Of a stretch of DNA of 64,000 nt, positions 1-22,490 are shown one piece after another. Numbering within the stretch: the stretch's first letter is position 1; each line of letters opens with the position of its first letter. The position numbers and the translations under genes are program-made. The notes beneath the pieces are model-generated. The model was not told the origin of the DNA and did not search any database. It saw only the letters and a list, made by a program, of their open reading frames with translations. The stretch is from an uncultured virus (IMG/VR IMGVR_UViG_3300024933_000029) (lineage: Duplodnaviria > Heunggongvirae > Uroviricota > Caudoviricetes), in the IMG/VR virus record IMGVR_UViG_3300024933_000029, positions 1-64,000 of that record. One strand, given 5' to 3'.

Positions 1-207
1 TCACCGGCGCCCCTCAGCCCAGGCCTTGACGTCGGCCATACGCCAGTAGCGGATGCGGCGGCTGGCGTTGATGAAGGGCTTGGGAAAGTCCGGGCGCTTG
101 GTCAGGCGCGCGGTGACGTGCTCGCGGCTCAGGCCCAGGTAGTTGGCGATGCCCTGGGTGTCCAGGCGCGGGGCGCTGTGAAAGAGTTCCATGTTCTGTT
201 GCGTCAT
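1..207 (-). CDS. AlpA/excisionase-like winged-helix protein
   Basis: 68 aa, IANYLGLSR...PDFPKP...RYWRMADVKAW AlpA pattern. Confidence 0.75.
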   Translation of the reverse strand: MTQQNMELFHSAPRLDTQGIANYLGLSREHVTARLTKRPDFPKPFINASRRIRYWRMADVKAWAEGRR

Positions 208-249
208 TGCGGTGTTCTCCGATGTCGTGTCCGGTGCTGGGGTGCTTGA

Positions 250-498
250 TCAGGCCTGGCGCGGCGTGATGGACTTGCCTGCCTTCTTGCGCTCCACACG
301 TTCAACTCGCTCGACTCGCAGCACGGGCCGGCCGCTGGCCAGCAGGGCGCAGGCCTGGGCGTGGCTGGCGCTGGCAGCCTTCAGTCGCAGCACGGGCAGC
401 AGGCGGGCGTCGGCCAGTTGATCCAGCTGCGCGGCGTCCACGCCGTGGGGTATGAGGGTGGCGCGATAGCTGCGCAGGGCGGTGATGTTGTGGTGCAT
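250..498 (-). CDS. Hypothetical phage protein
   Basis: 82-aa ORF in operon after gpA, GGAGGA RBS. Confidence 0.6.
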   Translation of the reverse strand: MHHNITALRSYRATLIPHGVDAAQLDQLADARLLPVLRLKAASASHAQACALLASGRPVLRVERVERVERKKAGKSITPRQA

Positions 499-519
499 GG
501 TGGGTCCTCCTGGGGTGGA

Positions 520-2496
520 TCAGCTGGTCAAGAAAGGGTGGTTGGATGGCGTGGCGCCGGATGCGGGGCGGTGCAGCACGGAATGGGGCACTGGATCGGC
601 ACCCGAATCGGGCCCGGCCGGGTTGGCCCGGTCCTCGCGCTGGTGCCCGCCGCGGCCGATGAGGGCGCGCAGCGTGTGGCCCGTGAGCCGGGCCGTACAG
701 TTATTGAAACCAGTCCAAGCGCGCGCCAGCGGCGCGCGGGCGGGCAGGGCGGGCGGGGCCACGTCGGCGACCTCGGCGCTTTCCGCACCTTGGGTTTCCT
801 GGAAATCCAGCGTGGCGCGCGCCACGCTGCGCCAGGCGATGCGCCGCGAGACCAGCCACTGGCCGCGCCGGGTTTCCAGGCCCACCACGCGGCCGCAGCC
901 GGGCGCGATGGCCTCGCCGTATTGGTTGACGGCGCCGGCGGGCACGGGGCGGCGTGCCATGCGCAGGTGCCAGCGGTCGCGGGCCAGGCAGTGGCCGCCC
1001 ATGGCTTCCATGTAGCGGCGCCAGTCGGCGGGGATGTCGGGCCCGTGGCGGTGGCTGGCGCCCCAGGCCTTCCAGCTGGCCTTGTCGCCGTCGATGCGGA
1101 TCTGTTCGACCTGGTCCTTGCTGACACGGCGCAGCTCGCGCCAGACGCAGACGCTGGGCATGCCCACGGCCTGGAACTGGCGAATGCCCCAGCAGGCGGC
1201 CCAGGCGTCCACGCGGCGGTGGCCGGGCATGCCGCCCTGCTCCACATCCCACAGGCGGCCCTGCACCACGTCCAGGTGGTCGGCCAGGGCCGCATGGCCC
1301 ACGCTCTTGGCGATGTACTTGGCCACGTAGCCGGCAGCGCCGCCGCCGGTCATGCGCTTGACGTTGACGCGGTTGCGCTGGGCGCCGCGCTCGTCGCCAT
1401 CTTCGCTGAGCCACCATTTGCGGATGGCGGCCTCGATGTGCCGGGCGTGCTCCTCGCACTCCGCCCAGACCAGGGCGTGCCAGTGCGGCGTGGCGTCATG
1501 GTGCGGCTCGGCCACGCGGATGCCGTACATGGCGATGCGCTGGCGGCCCAGGTGCGATCGCACGCGCGCCCACATGGTGCGCAGCCACAGCTGGGCATCG
1601 CGCGGCGTGCTGTGGCCGTCGTAATGCGGATTGGGGCGCGGCCGGCCGCCGCTGCCCAGCGTGACGGCGTGAAAGCGGCTGGGCGCCGTCAGCGTGAGAA
1701 AGAGGCCGACGTGGCTGCGCGCGTCGGCATATTCCTCTGCGCCGCGGATGCGCGTCATCAGCTCGCCGCCACGGATCACGGGGTTGGCCGGCGACAGCGC
1801 GGCCAGCTCGGCCAGGGTGAAGACCTGGCCGGCCTCGTTTCGGTAGAGGCTGCGCTCCAGCGCGCGGGCGTTGCGTTCGATCTGCGCGGTGCGCCGGCGC
1901 ACGGTGGTATTGCTGGCATAGCCGCCGGTGCGGCGGTTGACGATGCCCAGCTTGACGGCGCCAGCCTCCACGGTGCGCGTGACGTGGCGGCGCAGCATGC
2001 GGCGCCACCAGGCCGCGTCCAGCGCGCGGCGGATGGCGGGCTCGCCGGCCAGCGGCGTGCTTTCCTGCAGGCCCAGCATGCGCAGCATCAGCCGCACCAG
2101 GTCCACGCGTGCGGCCAGGTCCATGTTCTGGGCCTGGGCGCCGGCGTCGAGCTCACCGACTTCGTCGCTCAGGCGCCTGGCCATCTGGCAGATCTCGTAG
2201 TCGTCCAGATTCCATTCGGCCGCACGGCCGTGGCGGCTGGCAAAGTCGTCAATGGCGGCCAGCGCGTCGTGGCAGGCGGCCCATTCGGGCTGGCCGTTGG
2301 CGTGTTGCGCGCCCTTTTGCCAGTCGCCCAGGCCCAGCAGCTTCATGGGCTGCAGCCACTGCGGCGGCAAGGCTTTTTCCAGCGCCTGCATGGCGCGCTG
2401 GACCATGTGGGGGCGGGGCTTGTGCTGGTCCCATTGCTGCAGGCTGGCGGTGCGCAGCCTGCGGCCGGTGGATTTGGCGGCGAGCAGGATGGACAT
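520..2496 (-). CDS. P2-type replication initiation endonuclease gpA
   Basis: FLTLTAPSRFH, HUH motif EPHHDATPHWH, tyrosine motif GYVAKYIAK, WGIRQFQ. Confidence 0.93.
   Translation of the reverse strand: MSILLAAKSTGRRLRTASLQQWDQHKPRPHMVQRAMQALEKALPPQWLQPMKLLGLGDWQKGAQHANGQPEWAACHDALAAIDDFASRHGRAAEWNLDDYEICQMARRLSDEVGELDAGAQAQNMDLAARVDLVRLMLRMLGLQESTPLAGEPAIRRALDAAWWRRMLRRHVTRTVEAGAVKLGIVNRRTGGYASNTTVRRRTAQIERNARALERSLYRNEAGQVFTLAELAALSPANPVIRGGELMTRIRGAEEYADARSHVGLFLTLTAPSRFHAVTLGSGGRPRPNPHYDGHSTPRDAQLWLRTMWARVRSHLGRQRIAMYGIRVAEPHHDATPHWHALVWAECEEHARHIEAAIRKWWLSEDGDERGAQRNRVNVKRMTGGGAAGYVAKYIAKSVGHAALADHLDVVQGRLWDVEQGGMPGHRRVDAWAACWGIRQFQAVGMPSVCVWRELRRVSKDQVEQIRIDGDKASWKAWGASHRHGPDIPADWRRYMEAMGGHCLARDRWHLRMARRPVPAGAVNQYGEAIAPGCGRVVGLETRRGQWLVSRRIAWRSVARATLDFQETQGAESAEVADVAPPALPARAPLARAWTGFNNCTARLTGHTLRALIGRGGHQREDRANPAGPDSGADPVPHSVLHRPASGATPSNHPFLTS
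695..722 (-). promoter_or_regulatory. P2-type rolling-circle origin inside gpA
   Basis: Minus strand GCGCTTGGACTGGTTTCAATAACTGTAC resembles the P2 ori (ending TCAATAACTGT), in the 3' part of gene A. Confidence 0.65.
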
Positions 2497-2500
2497 GGGC

Positions 2501-2953
2501 TCAGGTCCTCAGGGCCAGCGCGCGCAGCGGCAGCAGGCAGCTGCGCAGCGCGCGGATCTGGCGGCGGATGGCGTCGCGCTCGGGCGGCGGCATTTCGCGC
2601 CAGTCGCGCAGGGCCAGCTCCTCGATCTCGCCGTCTATGCCCGCCAGCAGCACCAGGGCCATGCGGTAGTGGCTGGCCAGGCCCGCCCATTCGCGGCTTT
2701 CGGCGCTGCCCGAGCGGCCATTGGCGCAGCGCTGCGCGGCCTCGCGCTGCAGTTCGCGCAGGCGGATGCGGCAGTCCTGGACGCTCAGGCGCTGGTAGGC
2801 CTCGGGCAGCGCGGGCGGGTCCTCGGGCCGGTATTCGGGCGCGGGCGCATCGTCTGCCCGCAGCAGTCGCATCAGATCGGAAAGGCGCAGGTCGCCGAGC
2901 TTCATGGTCTGTCCAGGTCGTTTCAGGGTAAGCGCATCCCGCAGGGCCTTCAT
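2501..2953 (-). CDS. Hypothetical phage early protein
   Basis: 150-aa ORF between ogr and gpA. Confidence 0.6.
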   Translation of the reverse strand: MKALRDALTLKRPGQTMKLGDLRLSDLMRLLRADDAPAPEYRPEDPPALPEAYQRLSVQDCRIRLRELQREAAQRCANGRSGSAESREWAGLASHYRMALVLLAGIDGEIEELALRDWREMPPPERDAIRRQIRALRSCLLPLRALALRT

Positions 2954-3061
2954 GCAGGCTCCGCAGGTTGCGGGAAAGCGGGTGGGGTGGCGGCGGTGCA
3001 GGCGGGCTGCCCGCGCGCCGGGTGGGGCGCCGTCAGGAGCGGCGAAGGCGCCCCGGCCGCG

Positions 3062-3385
3062 CTAGCTGCGCGCGCCTTCGGTGGATTGGGCGGATTCGGC
3101 CGCCTGGGCTGCGCGGTGCGCTGCGCCTTCGTATTGCGAGGACGGCATGGCGTCCAGCTGGGTCTGCAGCAGCTTGCGCTTGATGTGCGTGCTCATCGGC
3201 AGGATCACCATGGGGTTGGGAATGGCGCTGGGGCTGATGGTGCGGTTGATCTCGGTCACCGCCGAGAACACATGGCCGCACTCGAAGTTGCGGCACTGGA
3301 AGATGGTCTCGCGGCTGGTGCTGGTCAGCTGCAGGCTGGTGCGGGTGTAGGCGTGTTCGTTGCAGTGGGGGCACATCATGCGCAT
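3062..3385 (-). CDS. ogr: Ogr/Delta-family zinc-finger late activator
   Basis: CPHC...RTS...FQCRNFECGHVF...TISPSA. Confidence 0.9.
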   Translation of the reverse strand: MRMMCPHCNEHAYTRTSLQLTSTSRETIFQCRNFECGHVFSAVTEINRTISPSAIPNPMVILPMSTHIKRKLLQTQLDAMPSSQYEGAAHRAAQAAESAQSTEGARS

Positions 3386-3446: not shown

Positions 3447-3677
3447 CTATCGCGTCTGATCGGCCTGGGGCAGCGGCGGCATCTGCTGCTCGTACTGCTG
3501 CATGCCCATGCGGTACAGCTTCAGCGCGAAGTTGGAGGCGCTGCGGCTTTCACGGCTGGCATAGCGGGCGTGGCGTTCGCGTTCGGATGCCGTCATGCGA
3601 AGTGGCACGGGCCTGTCATGAAGCACCGGATCCGCAGGGATACCGGGCACGGCTCTGGGGGAGTGCATGGCTGTCAT
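3447..3677 (-). CDS. Small DNA-binding protein (RHH-like, Cox/Cro position)
   Basis: First gene divergent from the repressor; RPVPLRM...RSASNFA. Confidence 0.55.
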   Translation of the reverse strand: MTAMHSPRAVPGIPADPVLHDRPVPLRMTASERERHARYASRESRSASNFALKLYRMGMQQYEQQMPPLPQADQTR

Positions 3678-3745: not shown

Positions 3746-3754
3746 TGTCAATTG

Positions 3755-4087
3755 ATGAATAGAAGAAATTTCGATCACATCGGTGAAAGGCTGAGGCAAG
3801 AGCGTCTGCGTCTGGACGTGGCGCAGCTCGCCATGGCCGACGCCTGCGACGTCTCGCGCGGCACCCTGGCCACCTGGGAGAAGGGCGAGCAATCGCCCAA
3901 TGCGGCCGCCCTGGCCGTGATGGCGGGCCTGGGCGTGGATGTCCTGTATGTGGTCACGGGCCAGCATGCGAACGCATCGGTCCAGACCCTGGCGCCCGAC
4001 GAGCGCGAGCTGCTCGATTGCTATGGCCGGGCCGACGATTCGGGCCGCGCCGCCATCATGGCCGTGGCGACCCTGGCCGCGCGCTGA
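3755..4087 (+). CDS. XRE/HTH immunity repressor
   Basis: IGERLRQERLRL...VSRGTLATWEKGEQSPN...GVDVLYVVTG; no peptidase domain. Confidence 0.85.
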   Translation: MNRRNFDHIGERLRQERLRLDVAQLAMADACDVSRGTLATWEKGEQSPNAAALAVMAGLGVDVLYVVTGQHANASVQTLAPDERELLDCYGRADDSGRAAIMAVATLAAR

Positions 4088-4135: not shown

Positions 4136-5149
4136 TCACTTGGCGCGTGTTTCCAGCGTCAGCTTGGAGGTGAAGCCGCCGTCGCCCAGCTCATGCTGGA
4201 TCTTGACGACCAGCCACGGCGTGTCATCGATCTCCGCCTTGAACCCCTGCAGCTTCAGCGGCGTCTGCGGCATCAGGTCGGGCCGCGCCAGCGCCAGCTT
4301 CAGGCCCATGGTGGCCTTGGCGCGGTTGATGCGGCCCATCTCGGCCTTGGCGGCGGCCTGCGCCTCGGCCTCGCTGCCGTAGGTGTCCTTCAGGCGCTTT
4401 TCGTTGTCCTCGGCGCCCTGCGTGGCGCTGCGTTTCTCGGCACGATCCGCGTCGTTCCAGTACGCGCGCACGCCGCTGTAGTCGTTGCGTGCGGCCGTGT
4501 GGTAGTTGTGGCTGTCGCCCACGGCGCGCGTGAGCGTGGCGGCCTCCACGGTCTGGCCGCCGGCGGTGATCTTGCTGTCGATGGCGATGAAGGCCAGCTT
4601 GCCCTTCTTGACCGTGCACACGGCGTCGTACTGGCGCGCCAGGCGGCTGCAGAAGTTCAGGTCGCTCTCGTGGGTCTGGTCGATGTGGTCCACGCGCAGG
4701 TTCTCGAACTGCGCGTCCACGCGCACCTGCAGGCCGTTGCGCTGCGCAATGCTGCGCACGATCTGGCCCAGCGTGCTGTTGTGGTAGCTGTGCTCGGAGC
4801 GCGTGCGCAGCTGGCGCTTGAGCTCGGCCGAGCGCGCATGCACCACGATCCTGTCGGGCGCACCCTGGTGCTCCACCTCGTCCACCTCGTAGGTGCCCTT
4901 GTCGACCAGGCCGTGGCCGGCCCAGCCCAGCTTCAGCGCGATCTTGGAGCCCTTGCCCGGCATGGGCAGGCGCCCATCGCTGTCGTCCAGCGTGATGTCC
5001 AGCTTGTCGGCCTCTTCGCCGCGCGATTCGGACAGCGTCAGGTTCATCAGCCGCGTGTTCACGCTGCTGGTGATGTCGCGCCCGTCCAGGACGATTTCGT
5101 ACTGGGGCTTGGCGTGCAAGTATTCCTGCGTGGCCATCAGATCCACCAT
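4136..5149 (-). CDS. Baseplate hub / late control protein gpD
   Basis: ADKLDITLDDSDG, HIDQTHESDLNF; follows gpU. Confidence 0.9.
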   Translation of the reverse strand: MVDLMATQEYLHAKPQYEIVLDGRDITSSVNTRLMNLTLSESRGEEADKLDITLDDSDGRLPMPGKGSKIALKLGWAGHGLVDKGTYEVDEVEHQGAPDRIVVHARSAELKRQLRTRSEHSYHNSTLGQIVRSIAQRNGLQVRVDAQFENLRVDHIDQTHESDLNFCSRLARQYDAVCTVKKGKLAFIAIDSKITAGGQTVEAATLTRAVGDSHNYHTAARNDYSGVRAYWNDADRAEKRSATQGAEDNEKRLKDTYGSEAEAQAAAKAEMGRINRAKATMGLKLALARPDLMPQTPLKLQGFKAEIDDTPWLVVKIQHELGDGGFTSKLTLETRAK

Positions 5150-5583
5150 TCCCAGAAGTCTTCATCGGGCCAGGGATCGACGCCGCCGCTGCCTTCGGCC
5201 AGGTGGTCGTCCACGCGGGCCAGCTTGAGGTCGAACTCGATGCGGCGAGGCTTGCCGCCCGGTGTGTAGTGTGTGCCGGTCTGGCGCAGGTTTTCGATGA
5301 CCCAGGCCCCCAGCGGAGCATCGCCGCGCACCAGCGCCCAGGCCTTGCCGGAGTCGGCCATTTCGGTCAGGAAATCCAGCGACGCGGCCGTGCCCCGGAA
5401 CTCGGGCGCGAGCACGCCGCTGAGCGACATGCTGTCTTCGCCCGGGCCCAGCGACTGGCGGGCGGGGCGTGCGCCTACGCGGCTGTTGCTCGGATGGCGC
5501 CAGGCGCTGTCGCGCGCCATCTTGTCGAATGCCAGTGTGTCGATGCCAAAGGCAAACAGGCCCAGTGTGATCAGCATGCTCAT
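5137..5583 (-). CDS. Tail protein gpU
   Basis: MSMLITLGLFAF...WRHPSNSRVGARPARQ...RRIEFDLKLARVD; GAGGAG RBS. Confidence 0.88.
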   Translation of the reverse strand: MSMLITLGLFAFGIDTLAFDKMARDSAWRHPSNSRVGARPARQSLGPGEDSMSLSGVLAPEFRGTAASLDFLTEMADSGKAWALVRGDAPLGAWVIENLRQTGTHYTPGGKPRRIEFDLKLARVDDHLAEGSGGVDPWPDEDFWEWWI

Positions 5584-5588
5584 GCTCC

Positions 5589-8321
5589 TCAATCGATATC
5601 GGACAGCTGCGACAGCACGCTGGAGCGCTTGGCCATGTCGCGGCGGTCCAGCTCGGCGGCCACGGCGCGGGCAATGGCCTGCGCATCCTGGCCGGGCGCA
5701 GCGTTGACGGTGATATGGATGGTGGCGCCGGCCACCGGGGCCGGTGCCGGCGCCGGTGCAGCGGCGCTGGCCAGCGGCGGGCGGCTGTCGATGCGCACGG
5801 CGCCCGTGTCGGCCATGGCCGGCATGGCGCCCGTGGCCAGCGTGGCCGCCGTGGCTGCGGCCGCGACACCCTGGCGCAGTGCGCCGGCGCGGCCCTGGTC
5901 GGGTGCTGACGCATCGCCGGATTTGAACCACGAGCCCACCGACGAGGCCAGGCCGCTGATGCCCTTGCCCGCCAGGTCAGAGACCACGCCGAACAACCCG
6001 CCCGTAGCGCCATCCAGACCGGCCTTGCCGGCGTCCAGCAGCGTGCCGCCGACGCCCTTCCAGTCGCCGGCCTTGAAGGCGGTGGAAAGGCCGTCCCAGT
6101 TCTGCATGATCGAGCCACCCGCGCCCATCAGGCCGCCTGCGAGCCGGCCCATGGGTGTCATGCGCACCAGGCCCATCAGCGATGCGGCTGCACCACCCAG
6201 ACTGCCGCCCAGGCCACCGCCGACGGCTCCTGCGGCCCCCAGGCCGGCGCCCAGCAGGCCCATGACGGCGCCCGCACGGCCCTTGCCTGCACCTGTAGCT
6301 GCGCCTGCACCGCCGCCGAAGATGCGGCCTGCAGCGCGGCCCGCGCCGGCCAGTGCGGTGCCTATGCTGCCCATGGCAGCGCCGCGGCCCATCATGGCCA
6401 GCGACAGGACCACAGCGCCCAGCCCGCGCCTGAGCACGCCCGCAGCGTTGCTGGCCATGCGCAAGCCGCCGGCCAACAGGCCCATGGCACTGCCGCCGCC
6501 GCCCATCATGCCCAGCGACAGGACCACGGCCGCCAGGCCGCGCCTGAGCACACCCAAGGCACCGCTGCCTGCGCCCATGGCCGCACCCAGCAGGCCGAAC
6601 ACGGTGCGCGTGAGCAGCAGCGGCGCCAGCAGGCCGAACAGCACGCTGCTCACCACGCCGACGCCTGCGACCAGCAGGCCCAGCACGGCCACGATGCGCA
6701 GCGTCCACTGCACGATCTGGGGATGCTCCTTGACCCAGGCACGCATGCCTTCGGTCATCTCGCGCAGCGTGCCCAGCACGGCCTTGAGGTCGGACTCGAT
6801 GGTCGAGCCCATGTCGCTCAACAGGCCGTTGTAGCTGTCCTTGACGGACTCGTATTGGGCCGAGACCGAGTCCTTCAGGATGGCCACGCGCCCATCCATA
6901 TCCGCCTGTGACTTGAGCTGGGAGGCGATCTGCTGGTAGCCGCCCGGGCCCTGCTGGAGCAGCGCCTCCAGGGCCTTGCGCGTCTGCGCATCGCCGCCGG
7001 CCAGCTTGTCCAGCGCAGCGGCGCGCAGCTTGTCGCTGCCCAGGCTCTGCAGCTTTTGCAGCTGGGCCATCATCTGCTCGGTGCCGCCGAACTGGCCGCT
7101 GGCGTCCTTGAAGTCCAGCGACACGCCCTGGCTCGCCAGCATCTTGTTGACCTGGCCCAGCCTGGCCGGGTCCATGGAGTTCTTGACCAGGTTGCCGACG
7201 GCCTTGCCCGCGGCCTCGCCGCTGATGCTGGCGTCGTTGAGCATGAGCAGCAGCGGCGCGAACATCTGTCCCGACCTTGCGCCCTGCTGCCCCAGCTGCG
7301 GCAGGGCCTTGCCGATGGCATCCAGGCCCTTGACCATGCCTGTCGGGTCCAGTCCCAGGTGGGAGGTGCGCTGCACCGTGTCGGCCAGTGCGGCCATGTC
7401 GCCCGCGCTTGCGCGGGTGGCCTGCTGCAGCTGCGCCGCGAACTCGCCGGCCTCCTTGGCGGGCATGTTCAGCACCGCGCCCAGGTTGGCCGCCTGCCGG
7501 GCCACGCCGCCCAGCACATCCTGCGAGGACACGCCCTGGCGCTGCAGCTGGTTCATCATCGCGATGTAGTCGGCCGTGCTGCCGGGCATGTCGGTGCCCA
7601 GGCTCTTGGCCAAGTCCAGCACCTGCTGGTAATCGGCGCCCGGCTTGCCGTTGCTGCCCGCCATGGTGGCGCGCAGCTGCGCGGCGGCCTGGTCGTCGGT
7701 CATGAAGGCCTGGCTCACGGCGCGCACGGGCGTCAGCATCTTGCCGCCCGTCTCGCGCAGCGCCTGGCCGCGATCGGCCAGGGTCTTGCTCTGCTCGCGC
7801 AGGGCGTCGATTCTCTCCAGCCGCTGGGCGGCCGGTGCCACCACCTTGCGCTGCTTTTCCATCTGGGCCGTGGTGGCGCGGATGTCGTTGTGCAGCTTGC
7901 GCTCGTGCGCCGACAGGTTGCCCGTGTCCACGCCCGCGCCGCGCAGGCCTTCGCGCATGTCCATCAGGCGCGATCGCTGCGTGGCGCGCAGCAGCGCCAG
8001 GCGCTCTTCCTCGACCTGGGCCGAACGCAGCGCGCGCAGCATGGCGCGCGAGGGCTGCTCGCCCGCGCCCGATTCCAGCCGCAGCTGGGCCATCTGCTGG
8101 CGCGCGCCGCGCAGCCGTGCCGTGGTGTCTGCCAGGCCGCTGCGCAGCGCGCGGTAGTCGCCCAGCTGGGTTTGCTGCTGCTGCAGCTTCTTCAACTGGT
8201 CGACCGTTTCCTTGAGTTCCCGGGCCGTGTTGCTGCTGGTTCTGCCCAGCAGCGCCAGGGGCTGGTGCACGCGCTCGGCCTGCTTGAGCACCTCGTCCAG
8301 GCGCAGGGTGTCAACGGCCAT
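5589..8321 (-). CDS. Tail tape measure protein gpT
   Basis: 910 aa, Ala/Gly/Leu-rich, between E/E' and U. Confidence 0.88.
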   Translation of the reverse strand: MAVDTLRLDEVLKQAERVHQPLALLGRTSSNTARELKETVDQLKKLQQQQTQLGDYRALRSGLADTTARLRGARQQMAQLRLESGAGEQPSRAMLRALRSAQVEEERLALLRATQRSRLMDMREGLRGAGVDTGNLSAHERKLHNDIRATTAQMEKQRKVVAPAAQRLERIDALREQSKTLADRGQALRETGGKMLTPVRAVSQAFMTDDQAAAQLRATMAGSNGKPGADYQQVLDLAKSLGTDMPGSTADYIAMMNQLQRQGVSSQDVLGGVARQAANLGAVLNMPAKEAGEFAAQLQQATRASAGDMAALADTVQRTSHLGLDPTGMVKGLDAIGKALPQLGQQGARSGQMFAPLLLMLNDASISGEAAGKAVGNLVKNSMDPARLGQVNKMLASQGVSLDFKDASGQFGGTEQMMAQLQKLQSLGSDKLRAAALDKLAGGDAQTRKALEALLQQGPGGYQQIASQLKSQADMDGRVAILKDSVSAQYESVKDSYNGLLSDMGSTIESDLKAVLGTLREMTEGMRAWVKEHPQIVQWTLRIVAVLGLLVAGVGVVSSVLFGLLAPLLLTRTVFGLLGAAMGAGSGALGVLRRGLAAVVLSLGMMGGGGSAMGLLAGGLRMASNAAGVLRRGLGAVVLSLAMMGRGAAMGSIGTALAGAGRAAGRIFGGGAGAATGAGKGRAGAVMGLLGAGLGAAGAVGGGLGGSLGGAAASLMGLVRMTPMGRLAGGLMGAGGSIMQNWDGLSTAFKAGDWKGVGGTLLDAGKAGLDGATGGLFGVVSDLAGKGISGLASSVGSWFKSGDASAPDQGRAGALRQGVAAAATAATLATGAMPAMADTGAVRIDSRPPLASAAAPAPAPAPVAGATIHITVNAAPGQDAQAIARAVAAELDRRDMAKRSSVLSQLSDID

Positions 8322-8434: not shown

Positions 8435-8551
8435 TCAGTCCTGGCTTTCGTAGCGCTCGCGCGCCCGTTCATGCCATTGGCCGAGTTCGGCCAGCGACAT
8501 GTCCTCCATGTCCGCCGGCCGCCAGTGGAAGACCATGGCCAGGTCGGCCAT
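8435..8551 (-). CDS. gpE' tail chaperone extension, reached by -1 frameshift
   Basis: MADLAMVFHWRPADMEDMSLAELGQWHERARER; in frame with a -1 shift at TTTTTTG (8599-8605). Confidence 0.85.
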   Translation of the reverse strand: MADLAMVFHWRPADMEDMSLAELGQWHERARERYESQD

Positions 8552-8559
8552 GGCGTCCT

Positions 8560-8919
8560 CTACGCGCTCGGGAATTGCTCCCTCTGCGCCTTCGGCACCA
8601 AAAAAGAGGCCACCTCCGTACCCAGGGTCACCAGGTCGGCGGGGTCCAGCTGCAGCACCTCGGCCTTGTGCAGCATGGGCTCGGTCACGCGCGGCAGCAG
8701 GGTCTGCAGCGCGGTCACGTTCATGTGCAGCAGCTCGACCAGCGACAGGCCGCGCAGCGCGCCGGCATTGGGGCGGCGCACCAGCACCCGGGCCAGGTCG
8801 CCGCCGGGGCGCTTGAGCGGCACGTCGAGCGTGATCTCGCGCGCATCGCCCGATGCGAGGGCGGCCGCGTTGGCGGCAGCCTGGTTCTGGAGGTCTTCCT
8901 GGGGCTTGGTGGTGTCCAT
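8560..8919 (-). CDS. Tail assembly chaperone gpE
   Basis: ITLDVPLKR...RRPNAGALRGLSL...LPRVTEP...LDPADL. Confidence 0.88.
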   Translation of the reverse strand: MDTTKPQEDLQNQAAANAAALASGDAREITLDVPLKRPGGDLARVLVRRPNAGALRGLSLVELLHMNVTALQTLLPRVTEPMLHKAEVLQLDPADLVTLGTEVASFLVPKAQREQFPSA

Positions 8920-8987: not shown

Positions 8988-9497
8988 TCAGATGCCCAGC
9001 GCGGCGCGGACCTGGGCGAGGCGGTCGATGCCGTTGACGACTTCGACGAAGTTGACCGGATCGATCTCGATCAGCACCTGGCCGTTGATGGACAGGCGGT
9101 AGTAGCTGACGGCCAGCTTGTACTTGATCTCGGTCTTGTCGCCGGCCTTGGCCTTGCCGGGGTCGAACTCCGAGAAGCGGCCACGCATGACCACTTCCAG
9201 CGAGTCCACGCCTTCGCTGTCATCGCCCTGCAGGGCGCCGGCGAAGCGCAGCAGCACGCCGTCGTGGCGCAGCGTGCCCCAGGTGGAGATCAACTCCTTC
9301 ATGTAGCCGGCAGCGGTCAGGTCGGCCTCGATGGCCTCCATGCCGAAGTCCAGGCTGACCTCGCCGTTCATGCCGCCGGCGCGGTACTTCTCCATCTTGC
9401 GGGTGAGCTTGGGCAAGCCCACTTCGGGCATGTCGCCGATGTACGAGTTGCCATCCACGAAGGTGGCGAAATTCTTGAGAGAGCGGGGCAGTCCCAT
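8988..9497 (-). CDS. Major tail tube FII
   Basis: MGLPRSLKNF...LPKLTRKMEKYRAGGM...YYRLSINGQ. Confidence 0.92.
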   Translation of the reverse strand: MGLPRSLKNFATFVDGNSYIGDMPEVGLPKLTRKMEKYRAGGMNGEVSLDFGMEAIEADLTAAGYMKELISTWGTLRHDGVLLRFAGALQGDDSEGVDSLEVVMRGRFSEFDPGKAKAGDKTEIKYKLAVSYYRLSINGQVLIEIDPVNFVEVVNGIDRLAQVRAALGI

Positions 9498-11972: not shown

Positions 11973-12022
11973 GAAGGGAAGAGCACTATGTGGATGTAAA
12001 GCCCGCGTTTGGCTTCTTGGAA

Positions 12023-16200: not shown

Positions 16201-16351
16201 ACAGCACATCTGTGATGCCGCGCAGGCGGTGCTGCTGCATGCTCTGCAGCTCGTTGAGTTCGGCCGATTGCAGCACGCGGTCGGCCGCGAACTGCAGCCT
16301 GTCGTAGCGCTTGCCGGCGTCGAAGCGGTCGTAGATCTTGGTCTGGCTCAT
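13236..16351 (-). CDS. Large DUF4815-like tail/baseplate protein, frameshifted near the 3' end
   Basis: N-terminus YDRFD...RVLQSAELNELQ; ORF stops at 13346 but a natural-looking C-terminus continues to 13236 in another frame. Confidence 0.7.
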
Positions 16352-16361
16352 GGGGTGCCGT

Positions 16362-16847
16362 TCAGAAGGGGAGGATGATTTCTTCGACCTGGCGCACGCT
16401 GCCGCTGCGCAGAATTCGGGGGCGGCGCTCCAGCGTGTACAGCTCGCCCTTGCCGGTCAGCTGGCTGGCCAGCACCCAGCGCTGGCCGGGCGGCACGTCC
16501 GTGGCGACCTGGGTGCCGAAGAACACGCCCATCTCGCGCACGTCCTCGCCCTTGGCATCGTCGAAGCCGAAGGCCGCACGCAGGTAGACGAAGGTGGTGG
16601 GTGTGTCGCTGACGCTGTAGCGCGCGCCGCTGGGCAGCTCGATCTCGCCGTTGTCGTCCGGCCGCGCAAAGCGCACCTCGGTGACAAGGCGGCGGCCGAT
16701 TTCGTCGACCAGGGCGTTGGCGGTGATGGGTTCGGGCTCGGGCGCGGCATCCCAGGCGGGCAGGCCGCGGCCCCAGGCGATGTGGATGGTCTGGGCGGCG
16801 ACGGCCTTGGCGAGGGCGATGCGGCCCGCTTGCTGCAGAACTGCCAT
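16362..16847 (-). CDS. Baseplate/tail accessory protein
   Basis: 161 aa between gpI and the large tail gene; GRIALA...HIAWGRG. Confidence 0.6.
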   Translation of the reverse strand: MAVLQQAGRIALAKAVAAQTIHIAWGRGLPAWDAAPEPEPITANALVDEIGRRLVTEVRFARPDDNGEIELPSGARYSVSDTPTTFVYLRAAFGFDDAKGEDVREMGVFFGTQVATDVPPGQRWVLASQLTGKGELYTLERRPRILRSGSVRQVEEIILPF

Positions 16848-16849
16848 GT

Positions 16850-17830
16850 TCAGGGTTCCTCGGGTTCTTCGGTGGTGGTGGTGCGGGTTTCGAAGGATCG
16901 GCGCCAGGGCGTGCTGTCCCAGCGTCCGGTCCAGGTACGGGTGTTGTCGTGCGGGCGCTCGGTGCTGGCCCAGGGGTGCAGACTGGCCAGGGCCAGCGGT
17001 GCGGGCGCCGTCCAGGCGCTGTGGGTGGCCATGGCCTGGGCGGGAATGGGGCGCAGCGGCGCGTAGTAGGCGGGCTCGCCCGTGGTGGTGGCGTTGACTT
17101 CGGTGATGCCCAGGCTGGCGTCGATCAGGATCTCGCTGTCCAGCGTCCAGGCATCGAGCAGCATGCGGTCGGCATAGGTGGCGATGGTGGTGACGCGGAA
17201 CAGCTGGGCCGTGAGCACGCCGTCCGAAGGCGGTGCCTCGGTGCCGGTGCGGCGGGGCAGGCCCTGGCTGAGCTTGACGGGTTCGCCATACGGCGACACA
17301 TCGATCCAGGTGCCGCTGTCGTTGTCCAGCATGCCGGCGTCCAGGCCCGGGCCGTGGTCCAGCCGCAGCGGGCGCAGATCGTGGCCGTGGAAGACGCGGT
17401 AAAAGCGCACGTGCGCCGGCAGGCTGGCGCGCACCACATGGGCCACGCTGGCCAGCTCTGCGTCGCCGATGATGCGGCCCAGGTCCAGGTGCAGCCAGGC
17501 ACCATCCTCGTCGAGCTGCGCGCCGTCATATCCCAGCCAGCCCAGCGCACGCTGCAGGGACGCGGCCGTGCCGCGCTCGCGCAGCCAGGGCAGGCCGTTG
17601 GCGATGAGTGCGGGTACGTCTTCGAAGTAGCGGTCGAACTGGGCAATGCCCCATTCGGCCGCCAGCCAGGGCAGAAAGGCCGCAGGCTCGCCCTGGGCCG
17701 GCGCGGGAAAGGCGCCGGCCAGGCCGTCCCAATTCGGGACGACCTGGTCCACGGCCTTCTCCAGCGCCGTGGCGTTGGGCGGCAGCACGTGGCGGCGGGG
17801 CGCCGTCGGGACGATGGCGGCGGTGCTCAT
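16850..17830 (-). CDS. Baseplate wedge / tail protein I
   Basis: LPPNATALE...FLPWLAAEWG...RGTAASLQRAL. Confidence 0.8.
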   Translation of the reverse strand: MSTAAIVPTAPRRHVLPPNATALEKAVDQVVPNWDGLAGAFPAPAQGEPAAFLPWLAAEWGIAQFDRYFEDVPALIANGLPWLRERGTAASLQRALGWLGYDGAQLDEDGAWLHLDLGRIIGDAELASVAHVVRASLPAHVRFYRVFHGHDLRPLRLDHGPGLDAGMLDNDSGTWIDVSPYGEPVKLSQGLPRRTGTEAPPSDGVLTAQLFRVTTIATYADRMLLDAWTLDSEILIDASLGITEVNATTTGEPAYYAPLRPIPAQAMATHSAWTAPAPLALASLHPWASTERPHDNTRTWTGRWDSTPWRRSFETRTTTTEEPEEP

Positions 17831-18684
17831 GCCTGCAGGCCCTCGTCCACCAGCTGGACGCGGCCCAGCACCGGGTATTCGTCGGCGGCCAGCGGCGTGA
17901 GTTCGGCCGGGGCCTGGGCGTCGGGGTAGGTGACGCGGGCAATGCCGTCCACATGCAGGCGCGTGGTGATCCACGAGCGCGGCACATCGCGGCCCAGCAG
18001 CGCGTAGGCTGCAATCTGGGCGGCCAGGCCGGCCTGCAGGCGCGCCACGATATCCACGGGCGCACCGGGCTCGCGCAGCAGGTGCGCCGTGATGTCGATG
18101 GGGTGCGGGCGCGCCAGCGATACCGACACGGGTACGCCCAGCGGCCGCGCGCCTGGCGCATTGAGGGCCGACAGCACGATGGCCAGGGTCTCTTCGGCCT
18201 GTGCGGGCTCGACCAGCCACAGCTGCACGCTCACGCGGCCGGGCTGGGGTTGCGTGGCAATGGCGCTGTGCACATTGGCGCTGGCCGTCATGGCCAGGTG
18301 CTCGTAGTGCTCTGCCGTTCCGCTGCCGGCCAGCGCGCGCACGCGCAGCAGGATGCGCTGGCGGTAGCGTTCGTCGCTTTCCCCGGGCATTCGGGCCACG
18401 TCATAGAAGGCGCCCTTGTGGTCCAGGTCCGAGCCCTGGGCGAACGCAATCAGGTGCGCACGCGCGGCATCATTGACGCGCGCCCGGTACAGCAGCTCGC
18501 GGTAGGCGTGCGCCTCCAGCAGCTTGTTGAGCGGCTCGCTCTCCAGCGCCAGGACTTCGGCGGCCTCCGGGTGGCGCGCCAGCAGATCGGCGCGGTGGGC
18601 GTCGAGGATGCGCTCGAAATCCAGCGTCTCGACGACGCCGGGCGGCGGCAGGGCGTCCAGTGCAGGGGTCATGTCTTGCTTCAT
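17827..18684 (-). CDS. Baseplate protein J
   Basis: LPPPGVVETLDFE...LESEPL...AYRELLYRARVNDAA. Confidence 0.9.
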   Translation of the reverse strand: MKQDMTPALDALPPPGVVETLDFERILDAHRADLLARHPEAAEVLALESEPLNKLLEAHAYRELLYRARVNDAARAHLIAFAQGSDLDHKGAFYDVARMPGESDERYRQRILLRVRALAGSGTAEHYEHLAMTASANVHSAIATQPQPGRVSVQLWLVEPAQAEETLAIVLSALNAPGARPLGVPVSVSLARPHPIDITAHLLREPGAPVDIVARLQAGLAAQIAAYALLGRDVPRSWITTRLHVDGIARVTYPDAQAPAELTPLAADEYPVLGRVQLVDEGLQA

Positions 18685-19031
18685 GAAAGGGTGCGGGCGA
18701 TGGGCATCTGCAGGCTCAGCGGTGCCGGGCGGCGCGTGTTGTTGAAGGTGCCGATCAGCGTCAGGTCGGCGCGCCCGGGTGCGGCCGGATCGCGCTCGAT
18801 CACGATGCGCGTCAGCCGGATGCGCGGCTCCCATCGCATCAGCGCGCTGGCCACGGCGGCGCGCAGGCGCGCCTGGGTGGCGTTGTTGTCGGGCTGGTCC
18901 AGCAGCGCCGGGACCAGCGATCCATAGTCGCGGCGCATCACGCGCGAGCCGATGGGCGTGGACAGGATGTCGGCCACGCTCTGGCGCAGATGCTCCATGC
19001 CCTCAATGCGGCGGCCTGTATGGCGGTTCAT
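18681..19031 (-). CDS. Baseplate protein W (gp25-like)
   Basis: HLRQSVADILSTPIGSRVMRRDYGS...WEPRI. Confidence 0.92.
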   Translation of the reverse strand: MNRHTGRRIEGMEHLRQSVADILSTPIGSRVMRRDYGSLVPALLDQPDNNATQARLRAAVASALMRWEPRIRLTRIVIERDPAAPGRADLTLIGTFNNTRRPAPLSLQMPIARTLS

Positions 19032-19633
19032 AGCGGCCCCTGCGTGATGGCGTCGCCCGCCCTGACGCCACCATGGCGATGGCGCAGCAGGCTGATGGGG
19101 CCGGTGGTCACGTCGGGCGCGCCGGCCAGGCCTTGCGCATTGACGGTGGCCGATCCGCCACCGGCCTGCAGGCTGATGCCTTGCTCGTCGATGCTGATCA
19201 CCGAGTTGCCCACGCGCAGCGTGATGCCGTGGGCCACGTTGATGTTGAGACGGCCCGTGGTGCTGTCGTGCTCCATGAAATCGGTGGGGCTCCACTGCGT
19301 GTGGCACACCCCTTCGCGGTCGCTGGGCTGGGCTGCGGCGCTGCTGTAGATGCCGGTCAGCGCCACGGCGCCCAGCAGGTCGCCGCCGGGCGACAGCAGC
19401 ACGCACTGCTCGCCCACGGCAGGCGGCCACCAGACGCTGGCGTTCTCGCCCGCGGCGCGCAGGGCCAGCCAGGGAATCCAGTTGGTGGTCAGGTTGCCGG
19501 TCTTGACGCGGCAGCGCGCAGGGCGCGCATGGCGGACTGCGGCGATGGTGCCCGTGCGGATCAGCCCTTCCAGGCGGCGGATGATCTCGTACGGGCTCTC
19601 GGTTTGTGCGACGGGCGAATCCATGGCGTTCAT
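19028..19633 (-). CDS. Baseplate spike V (start may be 19624)
   Basis: LIRTGTI...WIPW...WWPPAVGEQ...HRHGGV. Confidence 0.9.
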   Translation of the reverse strand: MNAMDSPVAQTESPYEIIRRLEGLIRTGTIAAVRHARPARCRVKTGNLTTNWIPWLALRAAGENASVWWPPAVGEQCVLLSPGGDLLGAVALTGIYSSAAAQPSDREGVCHTQWSPTDFMEHDSTTGRLNINVAHGITLRVGNSVISIDEQGISLQAGGGSATVNAQGLAGAPDVTTGPISLLRHRHGGVRAGDAITQGPL

Positions 19634-19690
19634 GGTGCCGGCCGGGCCCTTGCGTGTCGCCGTGTGCCGGGCGTGGCGCACGCCGCCACA
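19632..19690 (-). promoter_or_regulatory. Ogr-type late promoter (V operon)
   Basis: TGT-N13-ACG dyad at 19672-19690, 34 nt, then CACCAT. Confidence 0.6.
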
Positions 19691-19719
19691 TGCAGCCCGG
19701 CATGGAGCAGGGCCACGCC

Positions 19720-20229
19720 TCAGCGCGGGTCGTAGTTCCACTCGGCCACCTTCTCGCCGAACAGGAACAGCTCCCACAACTGGCGCTGCGCAATGTCGAG
19801 CTGGCCTGGCGGCTCGGGCTTGTAGATCAGGTCGAAGGCGCCGGGGCTGCCCTCGCGCGGGCGCGCCAACACGGCCTCCACCAGGTCGATCTCGATGGCG
19901 AGCTGCTGCGGCTGCGAGGCGGCTGCAGGGTCCGTGGAAGGAGGCGCAATGTCGAAGCGGATCGCCTGCTCGCGCTTTTCGGCATGGTCGAACAGGTCGG
20001 GCTGGTGGCGCCGCGCCCAGACCAGCAACGGCACGGTCACGGCATCGATGCTGTCGGTGAAGTCCGCAATCACCAGGCTCAGCGTGTAGCGGTATTCCCA
20101 GGAAAGGGACGGCGTGCCCGTGTTGACCACACGGCCCCTCTGGATGGTGAAACGGATGTTCCCCGGCGACTGTTGCAGCTGGGGCAGGGCAGCGACGAGC
20201 GCGTCGCGCAGGCTAGCGGGCTTGAGCAT
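19720..20229 (-). CDS. Tail completion / terminator protein R
   Basis: MLKPASLRDAL...SLSWEYRYTL...VPLLVW..RHQPDL. Confidence 0.85.
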   Translation of the reverse strand: MLKPASLRDALVAALPQLQQSPGNIRFTIQRGRVVNTGTPSLSWEYRYTLSLVIADFTDSIDAVTVPLLVWARRHQPDLFDHAEKREQAIRFDIAPPSTDPAAASQPQQLAIEIDLVEAVLARPREGSPGAFDLIYKPEPPGQLDIAQRQLWELFLFGEKVAEWNYDPR

Positions 20230-20779
20230 GGCGTGGGTCCTGGGTCATGGTGCTGGTCAGGGCACTCGTCAGCGCGAGCCCGGCGTCGTAGGCGCGCTCG
20301 CAGGCGCTGCCTCGGTGGCGGGCGTCGTCAGCAATGCGCGCCAGCGCTCCCGCTCGCTCGTCAGCGCGGCGCTGCAGCTCGGCGAGCAGATCGAGGGCTG
20401 CGGTGTCTGGCGTGCACTGTCCGGCAGCGGCGCGAGCCTGGGCGGCGGCACGGTGGGCGGTGATGTAGTCGGCGAGGTCGCCGCGCAGCCGGCCAGCAGC
20501 AGCGCGGGCAGCATCGGCATCCGCCGCAGCGCGCGCCAGGGCCAGGTCCGTGTCGCGTGCAAGAAAGTCGAGGCGTTCACGGTAGGCTCCTTCCCGTTGT
20601 CGATAGCGTTCGGATGCGTGCAGGGCGGCGGTGGCAGCGGCCTGGCGGTCTGTCGCCAGATCCGTGCGCGCCTGCGCCGCATCGCGCTCGGCACCCAGCC
20701 GCGCCAGCGATTGCCATACCAGCAGCGCCGCCAGCAGCAGGGCCAGCAGCTGCCAGGCATGGGTTTGCAGGCGGTCCAT
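20213..20779 (-). CDS. Rz-like inner-membrane spanin
   Basis: N-terminal TM then coiled coil, ...RGSACERAYD; directly after endolysin. Confidence 0.75.
   Translation of the reverse strand: MDRLQTHAWQLLALLLAALLVWQSLARLGAERDAAQARTDLATDRQAAATAALHASERYRQREGAYRERLDFLARDTDLALARAAADADAARAAAGRLRGDLADYITAHRAAAQARAAAGQCTPDTAALDLLAELQRRADERAGALARIADDARHRGSACERAYDAGLALTSALTSTMTQDPRHAQAR
20269..20580 (-). CDS. Rz1-like outer-membrane lipoprotein embedded in Rz
   Basis: AAGGAG RBS, GTG start, lipobox LLLAGC, Pro-rich mature part. Confidence 0.7.
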   Translation of the reverse strand: MNASTFLHATRTWPWRALRRMPMLPALLLAGCAATSPTTSPPTVPPPRLAPLPDSARQTPQPSICSPSCSAALTSERERWRALLTTPATEAAPASAPTTPGSR

Positions 20780-21360
20780 CAAGGCTGGGCCTCCATGCAG
20801 GCCGCGTGGCGCGCCTGCTGGCGTGTCCACACGCCGCGGCACACCTTGTTGCCGGGAGCCGAGCAGTCGAAGCGCCAGCGCGTGGGCCGGCCTGCGCCAT
20901 CCCATCGATAGGCGCTGAAGCCCTGCAAAGGCTGGCTGCTGGTCATGAATCGCCAGGACAGATAGGACTGGCAGGCGCCGGCGTAGTCGCCAGCCCGTGT
21001 CCTGGCCAGCATCGAGGAGCCGCGCCAGGCCCCGCAGCTGTATTGGCCTGCGAAGTCCACCGCCTGGGCGAACTCGGCCGGGTGCACCCGCGTGTCGCCC
21101 AGCGAATCACGCACGCAGGCGCCGTACTGCTGCTCCAGCAGGTTGATGGCCAGCTCGCGCGCCCGTTCGCGGGTGATGGGTGGGTCGGCCAGGGTCACGC
21201 GTGTGCCGTCCTCGTAGCGCGTGGCGCCGTGGCCGATGGTGGGCACATCGCCGCGAACCGGGATGATCGGATCTGCGCTGAAACCTTCTGCGGCAATCCA
21301 GGCCGCGAGAATGGCCGCGCCAATGCCCAGGCCTGCCGCTGGCATGCGGGCCGTGCTCAT
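20779..21360 (-). CDS. SAR-type endolysin (GH24 lysozyme)
   Basis: Hydrophobic N-terminus then EG...DVPTIGHG. Confidence 0.85.
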   Translation of the reverse strand: MSTARMPAAGLGIGAAILAAWIAAEGFSADPIIPVRGDVPTIGHGATRYEDGTRVTLADPPITRERARELAINLLEQQYGACVRDSLGDTRVHPAEFAQAVDFAGQYSCGAWRGSSMLARTRAGDYAGACQSYLSWRFMTSSQPLQGFSAYRWDGAGRPTRWRFDCSAPGNKVCRGVWTRQQARHAACMEAQP

Positions 21361-21623
21361 GGGGCCGCTCCGGTGTCTGTGGCGGTCGAAGACGCCTTCC
21401 TGCGCGCAGCGTCCTCGGCCTGGCGCGCGCGCCGGTCCTCGCGCTCATTGCGCCAGCGCCACAGCAGATACACGGCCTGCAGCAGCACGTAGACGATGGT
21501 CAGCGCGGTCGCGGTATGGGTCATGGTCCAGCCATTGGCCACGTTAGCGGCCACGACGGTGACGGGAGGCGCGGCCTTGGCGCCTTCCAGGGCGGCGGTC
21601 TTGACGATAGTTTCTCGGTCCAT
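21357..21623 (-). CDS. Holin
   Basis: Small TM protein with basic C-terminus just upstream of endolysin. Confidence 0.7.
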   Translation of the reverse strand: MDRETIVKTAALEGAKAAPPVTVVAANVANGWTMTHTATALTIVYVLLQAVYLLWRWRNEREDRRARQAEDAARRKASSTATDTGAAP

Positions 21624-21624
21624 G

Positions 21625-21828
21625 TCAATCCCAGAAACTGATCAGGGGCAGGCTGGGGGCCTGGGTGGGTTCGGTCAGCTCGACGGCCAGGCCAGCGGGC
21701 AGATGGGGACCGTGGGCCGACAGGCCCGGGTTGCGCTCCAGCGTGGCTTCCACCACGCCGCGCGTGGCGCCCAGCTGGCGCATGCACAGCTCGTCCAGCG
21801 TTTCGTATTCACGGGCAATGGCCAGCAT
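21625..21828 (-). CDS. Tail protein X (LysM-like)
   Basis: ETLDELCMRQLG...VVEATLERNPGL...HLPAG...FWD. Confidence 0.88.
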   Translation of the reverse strand: MLAIAREYETLDELCMRQLGATRGVVEATLERNPGLSAHGPHLPAGLAVELTEPTQAPSLPLISFWD

Positions 21829-22080
21829 CAGGCGCGCTCCCTGTGTGCATGGTCGGCGGGAGCGGCGGCACGGGCCGGTGGCGGTATCGCCTGATCCGGC
21901 GCGGGAAAGGGAATGGCAAGACTCACTGAAGCTCCTCGTGGGCCGGCCCGCGCGGACCTGTTCCTGGTGCACCCGCCATGCGTGTGGCTGCGGATGCCGG
22001 GAACGCCTCAGGCCACCGGATCGCGGTGGCACCGGGCAGGCGGTAGGCCGGGTCCGGCGCGCGGGCCGGGTATGAATGCC

Positions 22081-22139
22081 ATGTTTGCCGACGGGAGCAG
22101 GCCCGGCAATCGCTGCAGCCTGTGCGCGCTGCGGGCACG
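22081..22139 (-). promoter_or_regulatory. Ogr-type late promoter (X/lysis operon, former head-operon position)
   Basis: CGT-N13-ACA at 22121-22139, 34 nt, then AAACAT. Confidence 0.6.
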
Positions 22140-22163
22140 CCAGCGGCCATGCCGAACGCAGAA

Positions 22164-22196
22164 ATGACAAGACCCCGCAGAGCGGGGTCTTGTCAT
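22164..22196. terminator. Hairpin terminator after the SOS gene
   Basis: ATGACAAGACCCCGC-AGA-GCGGGGTCTTGTCAT, perfect 15-bp stem. Confidence 0.7.
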
Positions 22197-22213
22197 GGTG
22201 GGGGTGAGCGGGT

Positions 22214-22432
22214 CTAGCAGCGCTTGCTGCCAACTACCTGGCTGCGATGAAGATGGTCGGACAGGTCACCCGCCGCCGCGCTGAGCTTGCGTGACACGGG
22301 CAGCAGCAATGCGGTAATGGCCGAGGCGTGCACGGCCGTGCCCCGGGCTGCAGCCAGCAGCTCGCAGATGGCTGCCACTTGCTCGCTGGCGCTTTCCACA
22401 TCGTCCCTGACCGTCTCAATCTGGTGCTGCAT
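22214..22432 (-). CDS. Small LexA-regulated hypothetical protein
   Basis: 72-aa helical ORF directly behind a promoter carrying an SOS box. Confidence 0.65.
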   Translation of the reverse strand: MQHQIETVRDDVESASEQVAAICELLAAARGTAVHASAITALLLPVSRKLSAAAGDLSDHLHRSQVVGSKRC

Positions 22433-22445
22433 CGCGTCTTCTTTC

Positions 22446-22490
22446 TACTGTATGCACATACAGTATAGGTCGAATGACCAGATGTTTCAA
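22446..22490 (-). promoter_or_regulatory. Sigma70 promoter with LexA (SOS) box
   Basis: TTGAAA-17-TATACT; TACTGTATGCACATACAGTA (CTGT-N8-ACAG) at 22446-22465 overlaps the -10. Confidence 0.88.

Follow-up and report, generated by a model that had tools for sequence, protein, structure and literature searches.

Tailocins are stated, in the available part of one review, to have no nucleic acid replication genes (PMC12090994). Among the closest described systems, BceTMilo of Burkholderia cenocepacia is a P2-type tailocin whose induction is RecA-dependent and gives about 600 particles per cell, and the accessible portion of its main text never uses the word 'replication' (PMC5411513). BglaTNB6 is described, in the available text, as another head-less Burkholderia prophage tailocin (PMC11524443), while Xnp1 of Xenorhabdus has a mitomycin C-induced gene called GpA, although the introduction of the same partly accessible paper says that the locus has no replication genes (PMC8855722). 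Here, we analyse the first 64,000 nucleotides (the window) of the uncultured-virus record IMGVR_UViG_3300024933_000029, which is 72,400 bases long as a whole. Window positions 1–22,736 are most of a P2/phiCTX-type element of about 26–29 kb at the Delftia tRNA-Leu(TAG)/tig site, which we are inclined to regard as an independently derived R-type (contractile) tailocin locus that probably still excises and replicates. Its architecture is already known and the Delftia case is new: neither a Delftia tailocin nor a test of tailocin-locus excision or amplification was found in the open full-text literature, a search that left subscription journals and bioRxiv supplements outside its coverage and in which most matches were judged by listing.

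A first-pass annotation, made from the letters alone, had described this part of the window as a head-less P2-type tail element with every contractile-tail and lysis gene in place. PHROG and Pfam scans identified all of these genes at the positions it had given, and an embedded Rz1 and the E/E′ slippery site are also present. The contractile tail set is complete (sheath, tube, tape measure, baseplate, terminator and fibre block), and the element has its own lysis cassette. Repressor, ogr and gpA with its ori had been listed as retained, which stands, whereas the label 'AlpA-like' for a further gene had to be changed: it is best read as an excisionase, because it is 92% identical to the gene adjoining the integrase in the complete phage G465. 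The features of the element in the window are as follows.

1–207, minus strand: AlpA/Xis-like excisionase candidate (phrog_66, HTH_17)
250–498, minus strand: early hypothetical protein of 82 amino acids (open reading frame; ratio of nonsynonymous to synonymous divergence, dN/dS, 0.18 against the G043 copy)
520–2496, minus strand: gpA, P2-type rolling-circle initiator, HUH and YxxKY motifs intact (PF05840, phrog_91)
690–725, minus strand: ori-like motif within gpA, presumably the P2-type origin; core identical in G001, G043 and the complete phages G005, Acica and G464–G467
2501–2953, minus strand: hypothetical protein of 150 amino acids upstream of gpA, present in complete relatives too
3062–3385, minus strand: Ogr/Delta late-gene activator (phrog_603, NF007241)
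3447–3677, minus strand: Arc-like regulator in the Cox/Cro position (phrog_3431)
3752–4087, plus strand: short XRE-HTH repressor (HTH_3/HTH_31 only)
4136–5149, minus strand: gpD (phrog_52)
about 5137–5598, minus strand: gpU (phrog_76)
5589–8321, minus strand: tape measure gpT, 910 amino acids, a length that would give tails of an estimated 135–140 nm (phrog_28)
8435–8919, minus strand: tail chaperones gpE and gpE′, the latter made by frameshifting at a T-run slippery site near 8605
8988–9497, minus strand: tail tube FII (TIGR01611 and phrog_23, tube/sheath entry)
9561–10754, minus strand: sheath FI (TIGR01611 and phrog_23, tube/sheath entry)
10812–12703, minus strand: strain-variable tail-tip cassette (weak phrog_863 match)
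11880–11898, minus strand: Ogr-type late-promoter box in the tail-tip cassette
12700–16847, minus strand: YD-repeat protein, DUF4815 baseplate/fibre protein (1001 amino acids) and BW3TFN protein (profile scans)
16850–19633, minus strand: baseplate genes I, J, W and V (PHROG/Pfam)
19634–19719, minus strand: 86-bp gap at the gpS position of complete relatives, keeping an Ogr-type box (19672–19690)
19720–20229, minus strand: tail terminator gpR (phrog_65)
20213–21623, minus strand: lysis cassette (Rz, Rz1, lysozyme, holin)
20213–20773, minus strand: Rz
about 20269–20520, minus strand: Rz1 embedded in Rz, with lipobox
20779–21360, minus strand: lysozyme (endolysin)
21357–21623, minus strand: holin
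21625–21831, minus strand: gpX (phrog_46)
21832–22139, minus strand: gap at the O-N-M-L position of complete relatives, with the preceding Ogr-type late-promoter box (22121–22139)
22164–22196, no strand: terminator-like hairpin ending the SOS gene (from sequence); by the order in complete prophages, Q-P stood between it and the late promoter
22214–22432, minus strand: helical-hairpin protein of 72 amino acids, candidate antirepressor by inferred function; its family stands beside portal gene Q in complete prophages
22448–22490, minus strand: LexA box (22448–22463) over the −10 of a sigma-70-type promoter, −35 at 22490
22613–22619, minus strand: putative arm-type repeat, X-side copy
22662–22736, no strand: att core on the tig side, duplicated tRNA-Leu(TAG) 3′ end plus trailer

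Three Ogr-type boxes, which we take to be late promoters from their likeness to the P2 motif type, are kept, before X, before V and before the sheath block. The genes for head, packaging and head joining are missing from this set. With queries taken from two complete P2-like relatives, tblastn gave no match to Q, P, O, N, M, L or S in the 72.4-kb record at E ≤ 1e-3; in four copies of the element, the best E value was no lower than 0.046, while R, V and X were found at once. This bears out the annotated absence of portal, terminase, capsid, gpL and gpS. No head-gene or S DNA remnants were found in the gaps beyond gene ends and att, and no P2 capsid gene was found in the carrier genomes G001 and G043.

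The gaps themselves are short: the R stop and the V start are 86 bp apart, and the Ogr-type box lies 290 bp ahead of X, or about 245 bp when measured from the inferred −10, close to the earlier figures of about 90 and 250 bp. They had been taken for two separate clean losses, a count that should probably be three or four. In complete P2-like prophages belonging to this family, the genes and sites run att, cos, LexA box, small gene, Q, P, O, N, M, L, X, lysis genes, R, S, V; by comparison, the element appears to have lost Q-P on one side of the late promoter, O-N-M-L on the other and S separately, with cos probably lost as well. In G467, a complete phage using the same site, att and the LexA box flank a cos-like motif, whereas the corresponding interval of the element is shorter and has no cos-like motif by a profile that is weak for Delftia-type phages. 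This profile scored 48 in G005, 43 in Acica and at most 4.5 in element copies, but is insensitive for the Delftia type, scoring only 7.9 in G467 and negative in L131 and the trimmed G464–G466. Because the deletions hit head functions only and spare the regulatory sites between them (the SOS gene, its hairpin and the late promoter), the locus was probably shaped by selection and not by random decay. Its parent, on the best reading, would be a Comamonadaceae P2/phiCTX-type prophage from which separate deletions took every head, packaging and head-joining gene. A gpR search of 401 genomes of the family matched 13; G015 and five non-Delftia loci, the set inspected, all keep their heads, seven of the 13 genomes lying outside that set.

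Head genes might also have stood to the left of window base 1, as the first-pass annotation allowed. This context was read from G001, L009 and L082. In G001, it consists of HipA-like and HipB-like genes, a tyrosine integrase of 338 amino acids, a second att copy and tRNA-Leu(TAG), followed by host genes, and since these occupy that side, head genes there are ruled out; the inspection instead yielded an intact integrase and att site. The HipA/HipB-like toxin-antitoxin pair between xis and int (L098 10,407–12,112) is conserved in G043 and G002:C59, and was not found in the complete relatives G464–G467. At the other end, the element does not stop at 22,490, where it had been drawn to end, but runs on to a duplicated att core of about 75 bp (22,662–22,736). 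A 7-base repeat is present in three copies on the integrase side and one on the X side in both species, and these may be arm sites. Each of G001 and G043 has two identical 72-bp att copies, yet 13 of 72 sites differ between the two genomes, so the element ends appear still to recombine; such homogenisation would be a sign of recombination, not of Int activity. Five of seven metagenome att pairs match over the adjacent 27 bases too, the pairs having been selected by exact match.

Selection was assessed by Nei-Gojobori comparison of the window genes with G043 and of the integrase of G001 with that of G043. All 27 element genes had dN/dS below 1 (0.04–0.58) and no stops, with values of 0.04 for sheath, 0.08 for tube, 0.11 for Xis, 0.19 for the SOS gene and 0.32 for gpA; the gpT comparison (49% identity) is unreliable. 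The integrase value was 0.06. A codon-position test, which is less sensitive to GC bias, counted 122 third- against 44 second-position changes in gpA (p 6e-10) and 57 against 4 in int. The HUH and YxxKY motifs of gpA are kept and the ori core is the same as in complete phages. Synonymous divergence (dS) is 0.26 in both gpA and int, matching the host genes tig, clpP and clpX (0.21–0.25), which suggests that the two genes have long been retained, mostly by vertical descent. Together with the intact integrase and att sites, these ratios agree with the earlier description of a domesticated, head-less element and indicate purifying selection on it.

A search with the exact 48-base att core recovered 20 metagenome and 7 viral stretches. 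By their flanks, the 27 matches comprise 11 tig-X (attL), 8 int-tRNA (attR), 4 int-X (attP) and 3 tig-other element junctions, with 1 cut off. Both ends lay on one contig in seven cases, 25.9–29.2 kb apart with 1.5-kb flanks seen, and the element spans 25.7 kb in G001 and 26.5 kb in G043. These two are the only full-length carriers among 61 genus genomes, G043 being about 87% identical and from a second species; G052 has an empty site, and G010 has another element there. In other strains (L131, G467), this site is taken by complete P2-like phages. A PLSDB search for a plasmid form gave two short distant matches only, and a sequencing-run survey returned 20 rows in 13 studies that include a portion of the stretch, in every case as contigs. 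There are signs of a third and a fourth lineage of greater divergence: L208, whose attL is intact and whose SOS gene is 89% identical, and the proteins P0004 (81%) and P0010 (75%), for both of which the longest contig has 51,994 bases. Integration at the tRNA-Leu(TAG)/tig site is frequent, this being a hotspot for at least two complete P2-like phages and for unrelated elements (L131, L136, L107, L239, L240, G467).

An attP junction is present in five records (L006, L009, L082, L113, L127). The whole element is also covered by the contig G002:C59, which has 27,167 bases and a terminal repeat of 157 bases. The junction is probably real DNA, and either a free circle or a chromosomal tandem dimer fits it. 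When four DNA runs were compared with the attP-containing locus, pieces broke at the core and none bridged it among the matches listed, one listed piece showing an attR loose end. The circular-looking contig (L082 / G002:C59) comes from a bin titled Alphaproteobacteria, yet it is identical to Delftia-flanked copies and is probably mis-binned.

A route to induction is suggested by a LexA box, the one perfect match in the window, a count not above chance (1 found against 0.75 expected). The box overlaps the −10 of the only sigma-70-type promoter in 21.6–23.0 kb (−35 at 22,490), and its position is unchanged in G043 while the upstream DNA diverges; this overlap and conservation make the box credible. 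The repressor is an HTH protein of 108–111 amino acids without a peptidase domain, so its cleavage through RecA is unlikely. Position and regulation make the 72-residue protein a candidate antirepressor. The small gene has a match in 14 of 77 genus genomes, and of the eight non-element loci fetched, seven lie beside portal gene Q and all eight have a LexA-type box upstream. Direct BLASTP against the small gene of G467 gave no alignment; a shuffle test (p 0.0014) and a family alignment placed the protein in the small-gene family, and its predicted fold is a helical hairpin (model pLDDT 88.9). LexA-box genes of 60–75 amino acids beside the portal gene of Comamonas/Delftia P2-like prophages (L217–L224, L199 862–1044) are a candidate new antirepressor family. 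In the P2-like phage DuoHS, a LexA-controlled tum is needed for induction, and the element has in common with such inducible phages, as far as the available text describes them, the logic of LexA box, small gene and repressor without a self-cleaving domain (PMC12055606).

We propose the following sequence of events. DNA damage and LexA cleavage would allow expression of the 72-residue protein from the box and promoter seen here, and this protein, by analogy with Tum in inducible P2-like phages, would inactivate the short, non-cleavable repressor. Xis and Int, whose genes and att sites are present, would then excise a circle of about 26–27 kb, corresponding to the junction seen in one strain, and gpA, present with its motifs, would nick ori and raise the copy number. 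Ogr would fire the three late promoters, leading to head-less contractile tails such as those of BceTMilo, which holin, endolysin and spanins would free, and their targets would be determined by the variable tail-tip cassette. It is likely that the element makes bactericidal tails. That it excises and amplifies itself is plausible, the chances being about balanced, on the basis of conservation and the one-strain junction. Somewhat more tentatively, the locus may work as an inducible replicon, in which the SOS response triggers excision and gpA rolling-circle amplification and thereby a higher particle yield; this, if true, would run against the textbook view of tailocins as lacking replication genes.

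Several findings weigh against this reading. The five attP records are identical base for base, also to the attL and attR records L007, L111 and L125, and hence represent one strain; one contig of this strain shows attL, attP and attR at 27,010-base spacing, that is, two tandem copies, which alone would explain both the attP junction and the apparent circle. No empty attB occurred among the 27 core matches. The dN/dS of gpA is above that of most tail genes, and element-host distance correlations are modest (rho 0.39–0.63, p 0.02–0.07) across eight strains within the species, the host-host correlation being 0.88. G013 and G469 have no element though nested in the carrier clade of the tig tree (99/98 support); present in many strains, absent from these two and sharing its site with other elements, the element is widespread but not fixed. 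One copy, L002, has frameshifts in J and I (L002 1,883–3,718), reflecting either decay or sequencing error. No function for the 72-residue family emerged from searches of PHROG, Pfam and PDB sequences or with Foldseek (weak DUF1484 in 4 of 12), there was no sequence or structure match to Tum, and an Atlas neighbour named 'Derepression' (PF25738) scored only 0.84. Finally, particles, killing, expression and a raised copy number are predictions for this element.

The tandem copies, the single-strain attP and the missing attB would also be expected of a tailocin whose yield does not depend on excision, staying integrated with gpA acting in situ or idle and with attP a tandem dimer formed by recombination between att repeats; homogenisation of att would need homologous exchange rather than Int. 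We consider this unlikely, since site-specific recombination is hard to leave out when accounting for the low dN/dS of integrase and Xis and for the kept arm repeats. The patchiness within the clade, the imperfect tree congruence and the complete P2-like phages at the same site, together with an 88% identical integrase in G465, would fit instead a still-mobile selfish element or satellite, whose circle spreads in particles of other phages or by transduction, with int and gpA selected for spread and the tails as cargo. This is improbable given that dS follows the host, that neither G001 nor G043 has a P2 capsid and, as a weak test, that the att-proximal interval has no cos-like site where G467 has one.

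Breaks in individual copies bear on whether the locus is instead a defective prophage in slow decay, held by HipBA-like addiction and by repressor immunity against same-site phages. Screening of 16 locus records confirmed a break in L002 only, other flags coming from the ends of records, from one divergent end or from module exchange, so that strain-specific decay, a possibility raised by the first-pass annotation, was not seen in these records, in dN/dS or in the codon-position test, with L002, G013 and G469 as exceptions. The HipA/HipB pair inside the element, the two L002 frameshifts and the loss in G013 and G469 suit slow decay. Addiction and immunity, however, leave the values for sheath and tube unexplained, the three late-promoter boxes are kept, the deletions are limited to head functions and the break is confined to one record, which leaves slow decay improbable.

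The tail tip is the variable part of the element, the interval from the YD-repeat gene to sheath measuring 1.9–3.1 kb across the six copies compared. The J-I-fibre block of G468 is 78–84% identical to the complete phages G464, G465 and G467 and 66–78% identical to the window, and would have been swapped for the complete-phage type; complete phages at the same site appear to exchange baseplate-fibre modules with the element. A variable tip or fibre region is a pattern reported for tailocin loci in the available text of PMC13280938. One copy (L005 7,860–10,000, from G003) has a 2.1-kb insertion between Rz and R with a tail-fibre-like gene of 455 amino acids and a gene of 124 amino acids.

Whether such tails might be joined to heads from another element, as the first-pass annotation had suggested, can be weighed at the head-proximal end. 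The tail module is complete and the same record contains a second, complete prophage, but gpS and gpL are absent, gpR is only 36–39% identical to R of the complete Delftia P2-like phages G464–G467, and the neighbouring prophage is lambda-like with its own non-contractile tail genes. As S and L are missing and R is this divergent, tail donation is unsupported, and we regard it as very improbable.

The remainder of the window consists of host genes and this separate lambda-like prophage. Record base 1 is the stop codon of the first open reading frame, the AlpA/Xis-like gene, and because the start falls exactly there, the record must come from a provirus call that was trimmed. A Delftia acidovorans MMO-42 contig (L081) is 96–98% identical to the element and its flank, pointing to Delftia as the host group. 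Between element and prophage lie tRNAs and the following host genes, whose names we presume in part from gene order.

22935–28963, plus strand: tig-clpP-clpX-lon host flank, outside the element (translation)

The lambda-like prophage occupies window positions 29,716–64,000 and continues to 72,400 in G000. It has an integrase beside tRNA-Cys, a DNA methyltransferase, a ParB-like gene, a split primase-helicase, terminases, portal, capsid and tape measure, as well as a short primase-like fragment at 37,551–38,276. An ARAGORN tRNA-Cys call at 43,006–43,094 was disregarded, as it falls within an open reading frame.

The element thus combines an integrase, an excisionase, gpA and ori under purifying selection in two species without its own means of DNA packaging, and can be seen as partway through prophage domestication, with complete phages using the same site. 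This raises the question of whether gene amplification sets tailocin yield; amplification could explain the high yield of BceTMilo and guide production strains. The CHC2 zinc-finger protein KL3 gp03 of BceTMilo we assume to have a replication role, in which case, were the inducible-replicon reading true, an integrase and a replication-type gene would have been kept for amplification independently in Delftia and Burkholderia, with gpA also in Xenorhabdus.

The complete Comamonadaceae P2-like (Peduoviridae) phages (Acidovorax Acica and Alfacinha, G005, G464–G467) share the gene order and ori core, and their gpA is 53–78% identical to that of the element; G465 has the same integrase family and Xis, while G467 uses the att site of the element and has, next to Q, a LexA-box gene. 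They differ in keeping Q, P, O, N, M, L and S, all absent here, and in their length of 36–39 kb, with a clear cos-like site in G005 and Acica. R-type pyocins and classic R-tailocins share the head-less contractile tail, lysis cassette and SOS induction but, in the available part of the review, are controlled by PrtR/PrtN, unlike the Ogr and P2-type switch of the Delftia element (PMC12090994). The earlier remark that pyocins have no replication genes is correct, but two other P2-derived tailocin loci, BceTMilo and Xnp1, keep one, as does the Delftia element. Xnp1/xbp1 is likewise a P2 remnant without capsid, portal and terminase, with Ogr and CI kept and a variable fibre region, although in the available texts no integrase or att is described for it (PMC8855722, PMC13280938). 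BceTMilo, as far as its accessible text goes, has the breakpoint exactly between X and L, S deleted and R kept; it retains integrase, Xis, Ogr, a CI-like repressor and a complete lysis cassette, is conserved across strains, has a 930-residue CHC2 zinc-finger protein where the Delftia element has gpA and ori, and differs in parent phage, lysis genes and fibre (PMC5411513). Its Table S3 has no LexA-controlled gene or HipBA pair, both present in the Delftia element, and excision and copy number are not described in the accessible text (PMC5411513). BceTMilo is a proven tailocin. The novelty implied by the first-pass annotation was therefore overstated, as BceTMilo has the same gene content and breakpoints. 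The Delftia element shows the same X/L breakpoint, lost S, kept R and retained int, xis, ogr and repressor, with independent ancestry, and because its gpA and ori are intact, in a departure from the no-replication rule shared by BceTMilo and Xnp1, we place it with the BceTMilo-like kind rather than with the pyocins.

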